Below are positions 37,150 through 61,996 of a DNA stretch of 64,000 nt, in pieces. Below the pieces are notes generated by a model, which was not told where the DNA came from, searched no databases, and saw only the letters and a program-made list of their open reading frames with translations. The stretch's first letter is position 1; each line of letters opens with the position of its first letter. Where the stretch lies: positions 32,001-96,000 of the IMG/VR virus record IMGVR_UViG_3300020153_000001; one strand, given 5' to 3'. The position numbers were made by a program, and so were the translations under genes. The stretch comes from a virus.

Positions 37150-37325
37150 AAATAAAGAGGAGGGGTGAAAAGGAGTTATGAATACAATAAACATCCTCTA
37201 TAATTGAGGGAAGAAGTTTTAAAAATAAAAAAATAGAAGTGGAGCTTATAAACCGTTTTGTAGGCGTTTAATCTTAAAAAAGAGCCATCTCCATAAGATG
37301 AATGACGCGGCAAGGCGCCGATTAA

Positions 37326-37393
37326 GCCGGTCTCCGACGGCGGAAACGGCGGCTTGTACCCGCCGAAGCGGGGTTCGACTCCCCGGACCGGCT
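37326..37393 (+). tRNA. tRNA-Thr(UGU)-like, compact non-canonical cloverleaf, 68 nt
   Basis: Acceptor GCCGGTC/GACCGGC, anticodon stem CGGCGG/CCGCCG with loop CTTGTAC, T-arm CGGGG-TTCGACT-CCCCG, minimal D-arm; no CCA. Confidence 0.7.
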
Positions 37394-37395
37394 GT

Positions 37396-37463
37396 GCCTG
37401 CCTGATGCGGCATCGACGCTGATTCGTACTCAGCGGAAGGGGGTTCGACTCCCCCGGCAGGCT
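37396..37463 (+). tRNA. tRNA-Thr(CGU)-like, compact non-canonical cloverleaf, 68 nt
   Basis: Acceptor GCCTGCC/GGCAGGC, D-arm GATG-CGG-CATC, anticodon stem CGCTGA/TCAGCG with loop TTCGTAC, T-arm GGGGG-TTCGACT-CCCCC; no CCA. Confidence 0.7.
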
Positions 37464-37513
37464 ATTAACTAATAGACCTATCTTTTATCATTATTAATAA
37501 AAATAAATAAATG

Positions 37514-41479: not shown

Positions 41480-41530
41480 TTCGACTCCTTTCTAAAAAGG
41501 GAAAGAAAAATATGGCCTGATACAAAAAAG

Positions 41531-41890
41531 TGGAGGCGGCGGGAATCGAACCCGCGTCCCGCGGCGGCCTTCGGATAGGCCTGGTACGTGCGTAGTCGGT
41601 TTTTGAATTTCGCCAGCCGGGGCCCAACCGACAGGGCCATCTCGACGGCTAGCCGGCCTTGAAGTTTAATCTTGGGCCAAACCGGCGCCGACCCAAGACG
41701 AGCCGGAATTGCCGACCGGTTTTCGGGCCTCTCCGGCAAAAGCCCTCAACCGGGCTGCCTATCGACTAAGCAGCAATCGCGAGCGGCTGCTCGGCGTGTA
41801 ATTTTGCAGTCGGCTTTTAACGTGGCCAGCCGACCAACCACGGCACGGTGCCTATCGCCAGAGCCGTCCGGTCGAATCCAATTCGCCCCC
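41531..41890 (-). ncRNA. ssrA: tmRNA
   Basis: 5' GGGGGCG pairs with 3' CGCCTCC-A (G3:U70 Ala identity); GGATTCGAC and GGTTCGATTCC motifs; tag ORF 41807-41766 = AKLHAEQPLAIAA-stop. Confidence 0.95.
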
Positions 41891-56031: not shown

Positions 56032-56390
56032 CTCGTAGATTCCCTTCCTTCTACCGCAAAGTCGTCGACTATAGTCTTGGTAAACATCGGCAGCCGCGTC
56101 GATAAATTGCTAGAAATAATAAACGCCCTGCTAGGCGTTAGGTTCCTCAATAAAAACGCCCTATACATCGCAAGACTGTAGGCAGACTTCAACTGAGCCG
56201 TTATCATCTTGCCATCGCTAGCGCGTCGTTCTTGTAACACCTCAGCCGGTGTTTTGCCAGAGGCTTGTTTAAAGACGTTATATGCGCTTTCTCCACCATC
56301 GTTTAAAGATATATCTTCAGGAACAAACCAATCACTAGCGCCGTTACTGACGCTAATCATTTCCGACCACATATCGAATATATCAGACAC
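56028..56390 (-). CDS. Hypothetical protein
   Basis: 120 aa, coupled on both sides. Confidence 0.55.
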   Translation of the reverse strand: MSDIFDMWSEMISVSNGASDWFVPEDISLNDGGESAYNVFKQASGKTPAEVLQERRASDGKMITAQLKSAYSLAMYRAFLLRNLTPSRAFIISSNLSTRLPMFTKTIVDDFAVEGRESTR

Positions 56391-57198
56391 TGTATTTTCC
56401 TTTCTGTAACTGATACCAATACTTGATCCGCTCTTCTATCTCGGCAATACGCTGACTAACCCTACCAGGGCTTAAGTGCAGCTTTTCTGCTATCTCTTTC
56501 TGCGGCGTTTTATTTCTGCCGTGAAGCCCGTAATAGAGCTCTATAATCGCCTTGTCAATTGGATCAGCATCTATGTAAGCTAGCTCAAGCAGCTGCGTAA
56601 AGGCATCCGTCGTGGCAAGCGGAGAAGTAGGGATTTCAGATATTCCCTCCGCCGTTTGTCTGACAGTAGTAGCTTCGGGTAGTGCCATCCTGCCCTTTTG
56701 TCGTATTTTCTTTATCCTTTCAATGGAAAGACCCGTGTAGTCCGCCAATTCTTCCGTATTTGGTAGCCTGCCCAGCGTCTGCACTAGCTCCTCTTCAGCG
56801 TTATTAAGCATAGTAATATCCATCGACACCTGCTCTGACTGCCGTATTATCTGTCTTGTCTGGCCGCCAAGTCGCTTCAGGCGTTGTAAATTTAGGAAAA
56901 CATGGTTAGTTAGGGGGCCTTTAGATGGATCGTAAGATTTAATAGCGTCTATGACTAGTTTTTTGGCCCTCGTCCGAAGACTGGGCGTGTCGGCTATATC
57001 GGCGGCGTAGTAGTGAATGGCATAGTCTAGTAGACTATTCATTTTATCGACCAAAGCCGTCATGGCATCCGGTGACTTTGTCTTAACCCAGCTTTCGTAC
57101 AGGGGAATATACTCTTCTTCCTTAAATTTGTATTTCGATCCTGCCTGACCTGTTTGCCTTCTTTCTAGAATAATATCTAATAGCGACCTTTCCAGCAT
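56383..57198 (-). CDS. Sigma-70-family sigma factor (FliA/WhiG-like)
   Basis: Region 2 AIKSYDPSKG..TNHV, region 3 LGRLPNTEELADYTGLSIERI, region 4 PQKEIAEKLHLSPGRVSQRI. Confidence 0.85.
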   Translation of the reverse strand: MLERSLLDIILERRQTGQAGSKYKFKEEEYIPLYESWVKTKSPDAMTALVDKMNSLLDYAIHYYAADIADTPSLRTRAKKLVIDAIKSYDPSKGPLTNHVFLNLQRLKRLGGQTRQIIRQSEQVSMDITMLNNAEEELVQTLGRLPNTEELADYTGLSIERIKKIRQKGRMALPEATTVRQTAEGISEIPTSPLATTDAFTQLLELAYIDADPIDKAIIELYYGLHGRNKTPQKEIAEKLHLSPGRVSQRIAEIEERIKYWYQLQKGKYSV

Positions 57199-57289
57199 AA
57201 TATATCTCCGCGAAGTGATAGCTAAAAATAAAAAACTCCGCCAAAACCAATTATACCTTAAATAATCACAAGGCTCTATTTGCTACATA

Positions 57290-57309
57290 TTTTGACTCCG
57301 GAGTCAAAA
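57290..57309. repeat. 20-bp palindrome, copy 16
   Basis: Exact; upstream of the sigma gene. Confidence 0.98.
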
Positions 57310-57334
57310 ATAGAACGTAGAAGCGTTCTAAAAT

Positions 57335-57376
57335 TAGCTAAAAAGAGAGAGCACCGGCCGAGGGGGCTCGGCCGGT
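57335..57376 (-). terminator. Intrinsic terminator after csx15
   Basis: ACCGGCCGAG/CTCGGCCGGT then GCTCTCTCTTTTTAGCTA. Confidence 0.8.
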
Positions 57377-57385
57377 ACTTCCCCC

Positions 57386-57763
57386 TCATCGTTTATTCCG
57401 GGCCGAGTCCCGGGCCGCTTGCAGATTAATAATTTCCGCCACTTCGTATTGTGGCGGAGTAGTTTCGCCGGGGCGGAGGCGCAGGATGGGTGGGAAATAA
57501 CCCATCCTGCCGTGCAGTTCGGCTAGAACGGCGCAGGCAGCCGAAGCCAGGGACGGCGGATTGACCAGAATGGGAAGGCTTTGCCACTGGTCGGGCGTGA
57601 GCCCGACCTCATCGAGCAAGGCGGCTGCCTGCTTGGGGAAGGAACAATTGTGGTCAAACTGGCACTTTACGTTTATCACTTTCGTGACCAGTTTACCCGT
57701 TAGAGCCTGGATCTGCTCCTGCTGTTGTGCCGTGATGGGGTGTGCAAAGTTGATCAAGATCAT
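57386..57763 (-). CDS. csx15: Csx15-like protein (type III CRISPR accessory family), stand-alone
   Basis: ILINFAHPIT..Q...QFD....F..Q...L...GLT..QWQ..PILVNPP.L...A..VLAELHGRMGYFPPILRLRP matches the Csx15 signature as I recall it. Confidence 0.8.
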   Translation of the reverse strand: MILINFAHPITAQQQEQIQALTGKLVTKVINVKCQFDHNCSFPKQAAALLDEVGLTPDQWQSLPILVNPPSLASAACAVLAELHGRMGYFPPILRLRPGETTPPQYEVAEIINLQAARDSARNKR

Positions 57764-57824
57764 TTCACTTCTCCTTTAAAAAAAGCCCAACTCCGGCGCC
57801 GCCACGGCGGCAGCGCCACCAAAC

Positions 57825-57855
57825 TTAATTGCCTAGAAAATGGCCAAAATTTAGC
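57825..57855 (-). promoter_or_regulatory. Promoter-like motif GCTAAA-N16-GGCAATTAA
   Basis: Upstream of the csx15 leader hairpin. Confidence 0.6.
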
Positions 57856-57930
57856 CGCCTAGTCCCGGAAAACCGTTAATTTTTAGATTATGCGGGAGCC
57901 GACACGCGACAAACTATAGATTAGAAACAA

Positions 57931-57956
57931 AAAACTGCGCTAATTAGCGCAGTTTT
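57931..57956 (-). terminator. Perfect 26-bp palindrome, probable terminator of the HD gene
   Basis: AAAACTGCGCTAATTAGCGCAGTTTT, followed by a U-tract on the - strand. Confidence 0.6.
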
Positions 57957-57992
57957 CCGTGTTAAGAGTAAAAATTTAAGTAGATAAAAAGG

Positions 57993-58607
57993 TCATTGTG
58001 GCATATTTTGTGATCGTACTAGGTGCTTGCATAAAGCTCGCCTAAATATGGGCTTTGCAAGCCATCTTGCCTTAGCAAAGTCCCACCACGTAACGCATAC
58101 ACTGTCGGCGTAATCAGCATATTTCTCAAAGTCCATGTCCCATATTGGTAGCTCGCCCCTAGATGCCACAATTCGCTTTACTTCGTTTACTAAGGCGAGG
58201 TTGTCAGCAACTTTGACGCGTTTATCGTCGAGTATTGCTGGGTCCAAAAACGCGGCCTTGCTTATTACTTCTATTAGTTGACGTTCATATTTCTTATGGA
58301 CGTGCATTCCGGGTAGGCCTCTTATTGGACTGATTATATCTCCTATAAACGCTTCTGCCGCGTCGTGTATTAATGCGGCAATATGGATGTCCTTGTCCTG
58401 CGGCCATAGCTTCCTGGAAATGATGTGAGCGAGGACGCTGTGGCTCAAAACGCTAAAAAACTTTGTACAATGCCCCTGAAATCGGCAAATCTTGCTTAGA
58501 CTGCTTATGATTTCCTCCCAGTCTATATCGTGCGGAGTTAGCTTTCTTATATCTATGACCCTGCCTGAGGCTGTTTCAAACCTTCCACGGTGCTTATAAC
58601 GACTCAT
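57993..58607 (-). CDS. HD-domain phosphohydrolase (YfbR-like)
   Basis: SLSKICRFQGH, SVLSHS, ALIHDAAEAFIGDI. Confidence 0.85.
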   Translation of the reverse strand: MSRYKHRGRFETASGRVIDIRKLTPHDIDWEEIISSLSKICRFQGHCTKFFSVLSHSVLAHIISRKLWPQDKDIHIAALIHDAAEAFIGDIISPIRGLPGMHVHKKYERQLIEVISKAAFLDPAILDDKRVKVADNLALVNEVKRIVASRGELPIWDMDFEKYADYADSVCVTWWDFAKARWLAKPIFRRALCKHLVRSQNMPQ

Positions 58608-58661: not shown

Positions 58662-58681
58662 TTTTGACTCCGGAGTCAAAA
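58662..58681. repeat. 20-bp palindrome, copy 17
   Basis: Exact; 15 nt upstream of a - strand TATAAT (58641-58646) that precedes the HD gene. Confidence 0.98.
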
Positions 58682-58837: not shown

Positions 58838-59455
58838 TTAGCTTGTCTGAGCCGCCCTCTCCAGTGTCCCATCCAGCCACCAGGGCAGTACTTCCTTGTA
58901 ATCCCCGGCTAAGCTCTGCCGCCAATTCTCCAAAAGCGGCAGGTTAACCAGGGTTGACAGCAGTGCGAGATTTTCCGGGGTCTGCAGGGCCTCGTCGAAC
59001 GCGGCGAGGGCATCGACGTACCGATTCACCGCGTCCCAGAGCGGTATAGAAGCTGGCTCATTCCAGCTTGCCTCCTGGGCTTCCGAAAGGGCCTCCAAAA
59101 CGAAGAGGGATTCCATTCGGGCCTCTAATAATTCGGCGCATATTGCTTCTTCAAGTTCCGGCGCGGTTTGGCCGCGCCGGGCGCCTAACAGTTGAGCGTC
59201 CTCTGTCCACAGCCGAATGAAATCCTCACCTAGCTCCGCCGCGGCGATGGCTACTGGTGGGTGTAAGCAGCCATCCATATCCGGCGGGACTTGGACCCCA
59301 AATGCACGACAGCGCCCCAGTGCCGCGGCCAATTGGTACGCCGCTAGTTTGGCCTCATAGGAGACCTCTTTCTGTTCCCGGTTCTCGAACTCTTCTAAGG
59401 CGGCCGCCTCAAGGGCCTCTTTTAGTTCATCCAGGAAGAAGAATTCTTGACACAT
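58838..59455 (-). CDS. Hypothetical acidic helical accessory protein
   Basis: Start moved to ATG 59455 (GGAGG SD). Confidence 0.65.
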   Translation of the reverse strand: MCQEFFFLDELKEALEAAALEEFENREQKEVSYEAKLAAYQLAAALGRCRAFGVQVPPDMDGCLHPPVAIAAAELGEDFIRLWTEDAQLLGARRGQTAPELEEAICAELLEARMESLFVLEALSEAQEASWNEPASIPLWDAVNRYVDALAAFDEALQTPENLALLSTLVNLPLLENWRQSLAGDYKEVLPWWLDGTLERAAQTS

Positions 59456-59527
59456 TTTATTCCCTCCAAAAGTAAAAAAAAAAGGACCGTTCCTCTTGGG
59501 GCGGCACCGCACCGCCCGCGTCCCATA

Positions 59528-59559
59528 TTAATTGCCGCGAAAACTCCAAAAACTTTAGC
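59528..59559 (-). promoter_or_regulatory. Promoter-like motif GCTAAA-N17-GGCAATTAA
   Basis: Upstream of a structured leader and 58838..59455. Confidence 0.6.
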
Positions 59560-60544: not shown

Positions 60545-60564
60545 TTTTGACTCCGGAGTCAAAA
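60545..60564. repeat. 20-bp palindrome, copy 18
   Basis: Exact; intergenic. Confidence 0.98.
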
Positions 60565-60685: not shown

Positions 60686-60758
60686 TAGGCCGGGCAGGAA
60701 TCGAACCTGCAGCCGGCGGATTAGAAGTCCGCTGCTCTATCCTTTGAGCTACCGGCCC
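60686..60758 (-). tRNA. tRNA-Arg(UCU)
   Basis: Canonical 73-nt cloverleaf; anticodon arm GCGGA-CTTCTAA-TCCGC; no CCA. Confidence 0.92.
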
Positions 60759-61810: not shown

Positions 61811-61902
61811 GCTAAGTCTCCCATATGACCGCTGCTCGAAGAGAAACTAAATAATCTTATGGGTGCCCGTAATTTGTTTAACTTGCGGCAAGCGGCCGTA
61901 AA

Positions 61903-61975
61903 TAGGCCAGGCAGGACTCGAACCTGCGACCCGTTGCTTATAAGGCAACCGCTCTCACCCCTGAGCTACTGGCCT
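61903..61975 (-). tRNA. tRNA-Ile(UAU)
   Basis: Canonical 73-nt cloverleaf; anticodon arm GTTGC-CTTATAA-GCAAC; no CCA. Confidence 0.92.
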
Positions 61976-61996
61976 ACCTCAATTGCTACTGACATG

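Follow-up and report, generated by a model that had tools for sequence, protein, structure and literature searches.

What purpose could a stand-alone csx15 gene serve in the genome of a large phage? Cellular Csx15 proteins bind cA4 in head-to-tail filaments and show ring-nuclease activity that ranges from slow to fast (10.64898/2026.01.21.700848; 10.64898/2026.10.26.761840). In January 2026, Chi et al. described Csx15 as slow, found none in phages, and considered that sponging might be futile against the large cyclic oligoadenylate (cOA) output of type III CRISPR systems and that the protein was perhaps useless as an anti-CRISPR (10.64898/2026.01.21.700848). Viral Csx15 was first proposed in print as an anti-CRISPR in October 2026 by Klimavicius et al., who report slow turnover and describe Csx15 as rare in viruses; the role of the viral copies is a proposal there (10.64898/2026.10.26.761840). 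For the locus described here, a sequence-only reading had suggested a captured host accessory of type III CRISPR loci, repurposed to degrade or sequester cOA.

Genome context of the locus

The window, i.e., the whole stretch of 64,000 nucleotides that was analysed, spans positions 32001-96000 of an IMG/VR virus record that is 135,539 bp long and, by CheckV, 94% complete. Genes lie on the minus strand almost throughout, and the phage genes present include those for a large terminase (gpA), baseplate J, a family A DNA polymerase, a DNA ligase, RNA-polymerase beta/beta'-like proteins, a sigma-70-like factor and a reverse transcriptase. Two other, independent assemblies (135,267 and 92,206 bp) contain the identical Csx15 protein with the same neighbours, and the locus is therefore not a chimera or an assembly artefact. 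The only public runs holding the stretch are two DNA metagenomes, from hot springs (2018) and sediment (2025).

Cas genes and a CRISPR array had been reported missing from the window, and this absence extends to the whole 135,539-bp record. When PADLOC was run on 148 phage ORFs, reverse-transcriptase models dominated among the best 25 families listed, and the absence of cas genes was therefore checked by separate searches. The whole record contains no Cas10 palm domain, no RAMP, no Cas1/2, no CARF protein of the APE2256 type and no CRISPR-like repeat array, and none of the 25 proteins of two Thermoguttaceae-type III-B loci (L007 and L009) has a homologue anywhere in it except Csx15. Similarly, no cyclase scored above cut-off in the record (SMODS reached 13 bits, with an internal stop), and it holds no tyrosine integrase.

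Identity and predicted fold of the Csx15 protein

The NCBIfam equivalog NF040560 (CAS_Csx15) matches the phage protein at 166.7 bits (E 2.4e-49; curated cut-off 35 bits) in an alignment that spans the entire profile (positions 1-125 of 125), and the genome-wide search gave 165.8 bits for the same ORF. In addition, PADLOC identifies Csx15 at E 3.3e-38, with two of its Csx15 models in agreement. The earlier description of a Csx15-like ORF is confirmed by these profiles; the family match lies far beyond chance and marks the gene as a true Csx15 at the level of sequence. No Pfam family matched the product at E <= 1, the DUF1874 domain is absent, and no PHROGs match was obtained, because the Csx15 family is missing from both libraries.

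The protein-database search returned 3,210 relatives of similar length, the best of them 65-70% identical to the phage Csx15. Alignment with 119 other Csx15 sequences showed that the majority residue is kept in 41 of the 41 columns conserved at 90% or more, including H8, H84, Y106, R118, R122 and R125. The N-terminal N-F-x-H-P motif, invariant in the alignments, is present as N5, F6, H8 and P9 and aligns to NFSGHP of the PDB entry 9teu; the central L-A-E-L-H-G-R motif is complete (L80, A81, E82, L83, H84, G85, R86), and the C-terminal arginine triad R118/R122/R125 occupies the HaCsx15 positions. As judged from these residues, the phage protein is catalytically complete and belongs to the major, catalytically active sequence type.

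The best sequence match in the PDB is the Csx15 domain of 9ylu (CbCash; E 2e-23, 86 bits, residues 2-121). Entry 9teu, a Csx15, is matched over its full length (E 2e-19, 73 bits) and is most likely one of the two Csx15 structures of Chi et al., while the Csx15 entry 9tet gives a weak match, a divergence that would fit the outlier PfCsx15. An AF2 model built from 34 sequences (pLDDT 90.9) has strands at residues 2-5, 28-31, 65-68, 93-98 and 106-112 together with five helices. The predicted fold is Rossmann-like, with helices and a beta-hairpin around a five-stranded sheet, as in the Csx15 crystal structures. Among PDB representatives, the model comes closest in structure to 9r8s, a viral SAVED ring nuclease (109 residues aligned at an rmsd of 3.5 A, Z 7.4), followed by the SAVED domains of Cap5 and Cap4 and CARF proteins, all Z values below 8 being suggestive only. 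This enrichment of SAVED proteins around the model fits the published link between Csx15 and SAVED (10.64898/2026.10.26.761840). A Foldseek search of the PDB (entries to April 2026, in a copy evidently lacking the Csx15 entries) gave nothing at E <= 0.001 and weak SAVED, Cap4 and Cap5 rows. The prediction of a complex of four Csx15 copies with four AMP molecules scored 0.00 and is evidence in neither direction.

Origin of the gene

In a species-level genome collection, the three best Csx15 matches belong to MAGs of Thermoguttaceae (Planctomycetota) at 65-66% identity, followed by Fimbriimonadia at 61% and then by many Chloroflexota at 51-60%. A tree of 133 Csx15 sequences places the phage protein in a clade of 16 with Thermoguttaceae-labelled sequences (SH-aLRT 96), an assignment that holds for the clade and not for a position within it. 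The closest cellular copies of csx15 directly precede a type III-B operon (cmr2/cas10-cmr3-cmr4-cmr5-cmr6), and beside them stand either cas1-cas2-RT or a CARF protein of 509-530 aa, which is adjacent in L009-L011. The Cmr2 proteins of those loci carry the GGDD cyclase motif and lack the HD motif in their first 80 residues, so signalling is probably central to this donor-type III-B system. A comparison of the phage with roughly 1 Mb of retrieved loci found, as shared exact 18-mers, those of csx15 itself and a few isolated ones at about chance level, and no spacer match to a type III host.

The base composition of csx15 is foreign to the phage. Its GC is 56.9% and its GC3 65.9% (z 2.8 and 3.6, respectively), whereas phage genes of 100 aa or more average 46.9 +/- 3.6% and 47.4 +/- 5.1%. 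The gene ranks third highest of 117 and is close to host csx15, whose GC is 59%. Furthermore, a sister phage lacks the gene. The sister genome is complete (144,055 bp, direct terminal repeats, 100% complete), its sigma factor is 77% identical, and it represents the sole other lineage sharing that sigma factor in a database of 5.8 billion proteins. Synteny with its locus (L107) holds across the whole region, where the homologue of the HD-domain gene is found at E 1.5e-72, yet the HD-domain gene and the sigma gene abut directly with the cassette missing, and there is no Csx15 anywhere in the complete 144-kb genome. With only two lineages carrying this sigma factor, base composition argues for a gain of csx15 in the present phage, a loss in the sister phage being the less probable course.

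The earlier proposal of a captured host accessory has fared well. Capture from a bacterial host is supported as the probable origin by nearest homologues that are III-B-linked Thermoguttaceae genes, by a GC3 that lies 3.6 sd above the phage mean and by a syntenic site that is empty in the sister phage. The Csx15 sequences of 13 other IMG/VR contigs fall outside the clade of the phage protein in the 133-sequence tree, and the viral acquisitions are therefore independent.

In those 13 contigs (L012-L024), Csx15 stands alone: within 6 kb of it there is no homologue of the Cmr, Cas1/Cas2 or CARF proteins of the Thermoguttaceae type. Ten of the 13 keep the full H8/H84/R118/R122/R125 set, and H84 and part of the arginine triad are lost in L020, L023 and L024.

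Architecture of the csx15 cassette

The gene is contained in a compact cassette that reads, from 5' to 3', hairpin with T6 run, GGCAATTAA, G+C-rich hairpin with T7 run, RBS, csx15, terminator, small hairpin, 20-bp palindrome and the upstream region of the sigma gene (Table 1).

Table 1. Features of the csx15 cassette and its neighbours, in window coordinates.
Feature	Position	Strand	Basis and remarks
Downstream neighbour, phage sigma-70-like factor (regions 3 and 4)	56383..57198	-	Pfam
Cassette between HD-domain gene and sigma-factor gene	57199..57992	-	~790 bp; synteny and DNA alignment with sister phage (L107)
Copy of 20-bp palindrome TTTTGACTCCGGAGTCAAAA	57290..57309	.	Between csx15 terminator and sigma gene
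csx15 intrinsic terminator	57350..57379	-	Terminator scan; 13-bp stem, 9 G-C pairs, 4-nt loop, T-rich tail
csx15 CDS	57386..57763	-	125 aa; ATG start, stop 57386-57388
RBS AAAGGAG	57771..57777	-	7 nt upstream of ATG; read from sequence
Hairpin of presumed 5' leader, 9-bp, G+C-rich	57795..57817	-	RNA fold; T7 run 57778-57784 after it
GGCAATTAA, candidate transcription-start signal	57825..57833	-	One copy of strand-specific genome-wide motif
Hairpin + T6 closing upstream HD-domain gene	57929..57956	-	Read from sequence; missed by simple terminator scan
Upstream neighbour, weak HD-domain phosphohydrolase-like protein	57993..58607	-	Pfam below cut-off; kept in sister phage

The sequence-only reading had given csx15 its own promoter motif, leader and terminator. 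The terminator does exist and begins 7 nt past the stop codon, which places it just outside the stretch of 57386-57855 first assigned to the locus. The leader holds in part: its hairpin and the T7 run that follows are there, but the presumed 81-nt leader as a whole has an ordinary fold (z = -1.6). Rfam searches of the cassette returned sub-threshold matches on the terminator hairpin only and no known leader or riboswitch. The HD-domain gene is ended by its own hairpin and T6 run, and csx15 is therefore insulated on both sides. The cassette has the anatomy of a moron.

The upstream motif

The motif upstream of csx15 recurs across the genome as GGCAWTTAA, with 11 copies that all lie on the minus, i.e., coding strand and none on the opposite strand. 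Seven copies are found in the window, compared to 1.97 +/- 1.48 in shuffled sequence, and the motif is also present in the sister phage. Copies precede csx15, the G+C-rich gene at 58838-59512, another G+C-rich gene beyond the window, and the tmRNA, where one GGCATTTAA copy ends 6 nt ahead of the 5' end called by ARAGORN. Its confinement to one strand, its excess over shuffles, the tmRNA copy and the sister-phage copies show that the motif is real. It is a candidate promoter; a generic sigma-70 scan found no promoter upstream of csx15. Of the earlier claim of a motif promoter, only the first half stands. At most copies, a strong hairpin and a U-tract follow within about 10 nt downstream, in the same layout as at csx15. 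The motif could be a promoter whose transcript carries a stem at its 5' end for stabilisation or attenuation, an insulator resembling a terminator, or a source of very short RNAs. A GGCAATTAA-type motif is shared upstream of csx15, the tmRNA and the other G+C-rich cargo.

The gene at 58838-59512 (minus strand, true start probably at 59455) is next but one upstream of csx15 and is the second most G+C-rich in the genome (GC 57.2%, GC3 62.2%). It has its own GGCAATTAA copy at 59528-59536, no family match and only 18 relatives in a large protein database. In the sister phage, a homologue of 75% identity sits elsewhere, flanked by an SNase gene and the reverse transcriptase gene (L105, 10001-10654). 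By appearance, this is the second mobile cargo gene of the phage.

The 135.5-kb genome contains 31 copies of a perfect 20-bp palindrome, TTTTGACTCCGGAGTCAAAA (counted by its 16-mer core with at most one mismatch), mostly at gene junctions, for example at 57290-57309, 58662-58681 and 60545-60564. Several copies lie directly ahead of a GGCATTTAA motif, and no copy is present in the two sister-phage loci scanned (L105 and L107).

Predicted role in infection

The phage is predicted to use its host-derived Csx15, as a ring nuclease or as a cA4 sponge, against type III CRISPR signalling, a reading to which we give a probability of about 0.65. A catalytically competent Csx15 would have entered the phage from the type III-B locus of a bacterium, the closest donor lineage known being Thermoguttaceae (Planctomycetota), and would now be expressed from an insulated cassette of its own. 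During infection, host Cas10/Cmr2 would sense phage RNA and make cyclic oligoadenylates, mainly cA4 for CARF effectors. Dimers of the phage Csx15 would hold cA4 between them when stacked head to tail, and H8 of one dimer together with R118, R122 and R125 of the next would cut it to linear A2 products, such that the CARF effector would be activated never or only briefly. For this phage, we infer that cOA is bound and cleaved, as well as when csx15 is expressed, which bacterium is the host and how immunity is affected.

The proposed activity matches that of cellular Csx15 in the 2026 preprints, and the phage protein keeps the residues found essential there. In HaCsx15, the substitutions H8A and R125A abolish catalysis, R118A abolishes cA4-dependent assembly, and R122 contacts the cA4 phosphates (10.64898/2026.10.26.761840). 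CliCsx15 depends on H13 and H90 for both its ring-nuclease activity and its oligomerisation, and its Y113 lies beside the adenine (10.64898/2026.01.21.700848); these residues correspond to H8, H84 and Y106 of the phage Csx15. Furthermore, type III immunity that depends on cA4 is neutralised in E. coli when CliCsx15 is over-expressed (10.64898/2026.01.21.700848), and HaCsx15 and CsCsx15 cut cA4 in about 1 min by HPLC-MS (13 uM protein, 10 uM cA4) and are reported to be active at nanomolar concentrations (10.64898/2026.10.26.761840). The phage copy keeps every conserved host residue. A tentative idea, which we consider possible but doubtful, regards the cellular and phage proteins as a natural 'before and after' pair, in which a host off-switch would have become a phage weapon through a change of dose and timing alone. 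As part of this idea, the broad specificity reported for Csx15 could let one cassette blunt the signals of type III CRISPR and CBASS alike.

Alternative explanations

It is unlikely that the phage protein acts mainly as a sponge, its filaments sequestering cA4 stoichiometrically while cleavage is too slow for the short infection window. The RBS and terminator of the cassette could allow high copy numbers, but the cOA output of type III systems is large, and retention of H8, H84 and R125 in a protein of the major catalytically active type points to cleavage, as does the rate of about 1 min at which HaCsx15 and CsCsx15 destroy cA4. PfCsx15, for its part, is a divergent outlier that gives only 21.7 bits against the phage protein.

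A main target in another cyclic-oligonucleotide defence such as CBASS, or a function as a broad-spectrum eraser of several signals, seems improbable to us. Further substrates of CsCsx15 and HaCsx15 are 3'3'3'-cAAG and 2'3'3'-cAAA, and the possibility has been raised for viral copies, but HaCsx15 cuts the CBASS substrates much more slowly and Csx15 is only weakly associated with CBASS in genomes (10.64898/2026.10.26.761840). The SAVED domains of CBASS effectors are among the structural neighbours of the model, whereas the closest homologues of the phage protein sit in type III-B operons.

About as little can be said for a neutral or transient passenger, i.e., recently acquired host DNA with no role in infection. 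The absence of csx15 from the sister phage and its foreign base composition would be expected of such DNA, and the terminal branch of the phage Csx15 is about twice the median length. However, the frame is intact with no conserved column lost, and the good RBS, the gene's own terminator and the copy of the phage's upstream motif indicate that csx15 has been fitted into the phage regulatory grammar. Moreover, the sequence does not differ between three assemblies whose samples are labelled 2018 and 2025, and stand-alone Csx15 recurs in 13 other IMG/VR contigs.

A normal off-switch for a phage-encoded type III or other cOA system, or for a lysogen's own defence, would be the role of cellular Csx15 (10.64898/2026.01.21.700848; 10.64898/2026.10.26.761840) and the phage record is 94% complete, but this explanation is largely excluded and hardly credible because its 135.5 kb contain no Cas10, RAMP, CARF or array and no cyclase above cut-off (SMODS at 13 bits with an internal stop), and there is no tyrosine integrase.

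Comparison with known systems

The predicted use of Csx15 against type III signalling can be set beside several characterised proteins. Cellular Csx15 (HaCsx15, CsCsx15 and CliCsx15) shares with the phage protein the NF040560 family, the length, the single-domain build and the H8/H84/R118-R122-R125 set, and the same mechanism is therefore expected, with a composite active site between head-to-tail stacked dimers. The phage copy differs in being virus-encoded and alone, with no cas neighbour, and is 65-70% identical to the nearest cellular copies.

AcrIII-1/Crn2 (DUF1874) is a viral ring nuclease, a fast enzyme that destroys cA4 and so disarms type III CARF effectors. The role proposed for the phage Csx15, cA4 removal, is the same, but the protein belongs to an unrelated family, and Csx15 needs ligand-induced filaments and can be slow. 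AcrIII-2/vSAVED (9r8s), the top structural neighbour, likewise forms its active site as a head-to-tail composite that includes a catalytic histidine (10.64898/2026.10.26.761840). The two differ in build: one vSAVED chain already contains the domain in duplicate, as a pseudo-dimer, whereas Csx15 has one domain per chain and has to dimerise, and sequence identity is about 6%. Cash, a Schlafen-Csx15 fusion (9ylu) and the source of the best PDB sequence match, uses its Csx15 domain as a Rossmann-like nucleotide-binding sensor and is activated by cA4 (PMC13462974). In Cash, a Schlafen nuclease is attached to the Csx15 domain, and Q stands at the H8 position in the aligned chain, whereas the phage protein has no effector domain.

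The nearest counterparts are the viral Csx15 proteins tentatively named AcrIII-3 by Klimavicius et al., which, like the present one, are stand-alone, metagenomic and proposed anti-type III ring nucleases. More than 20 viral cases were reported; they are rare and lie mostly in prophage regions (10.64898/2026.10.26.761840). The present case differs from that set in that it is found in a 135-kb phage with no tyrosine integrase, has an identifiable donor lineage and has a sister phage lacking the gene.

Significance

An anti-CRISPR role of the phage Csx15 is credible as a prediction. Both the idea of viral Csx15 and the biochemistry of the family were published in 2026 preprints, and the present case does not add a new category. 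It stands out for its fully canonical sequence, a phage with no tyrosine integrase, a donor lineage identified together with its III-B operon, and a sister phage lacking the gene. It is thus a clean test case for whether slow, filament-forming ring nucleases can act as anti-CRISPRs. Under the tentative 'before and after' reading, the sister phage without csx15, which probably stems from the same campaign of sampling, would have a different host range among bacteria with type III systems.

Other features of the phage genome

Several further features of the genome are recorded here. Phage ORFs match RNA polymerase Rpb2 domain 6 and Rpb1 domains 2 and 5, which suggests that a multisubunit RNA polymerase is encoded in addition to the phage's sigma-like factor. 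The tmRNA (41530-41890, minus strand) has the tag peptide AEQPLAIAA, and there are four tRNA genes, namely Thr-TGT and Thr-CGT (37325-37464, plus strand), Arg-TCT (60686-60758, minus strand) and Ile-TAT (61902-61976, minus strand). The reverse transcriptase gene, with strong PADLOC retron/RT matches, lies just past the window end (98714-99679 of the full record, minus strand), with a non-coding stretch of 839 bp upstream of it (99680-100518 of the full record), and is kept in the sister phage (L105, 11746-12693). In addition, the genome encodes several glycosyltransferases, and two ORFs match the prokaryotic viperin models of PADLOC (best E 6.7e-12) as well as Pfam Radical_SAM.
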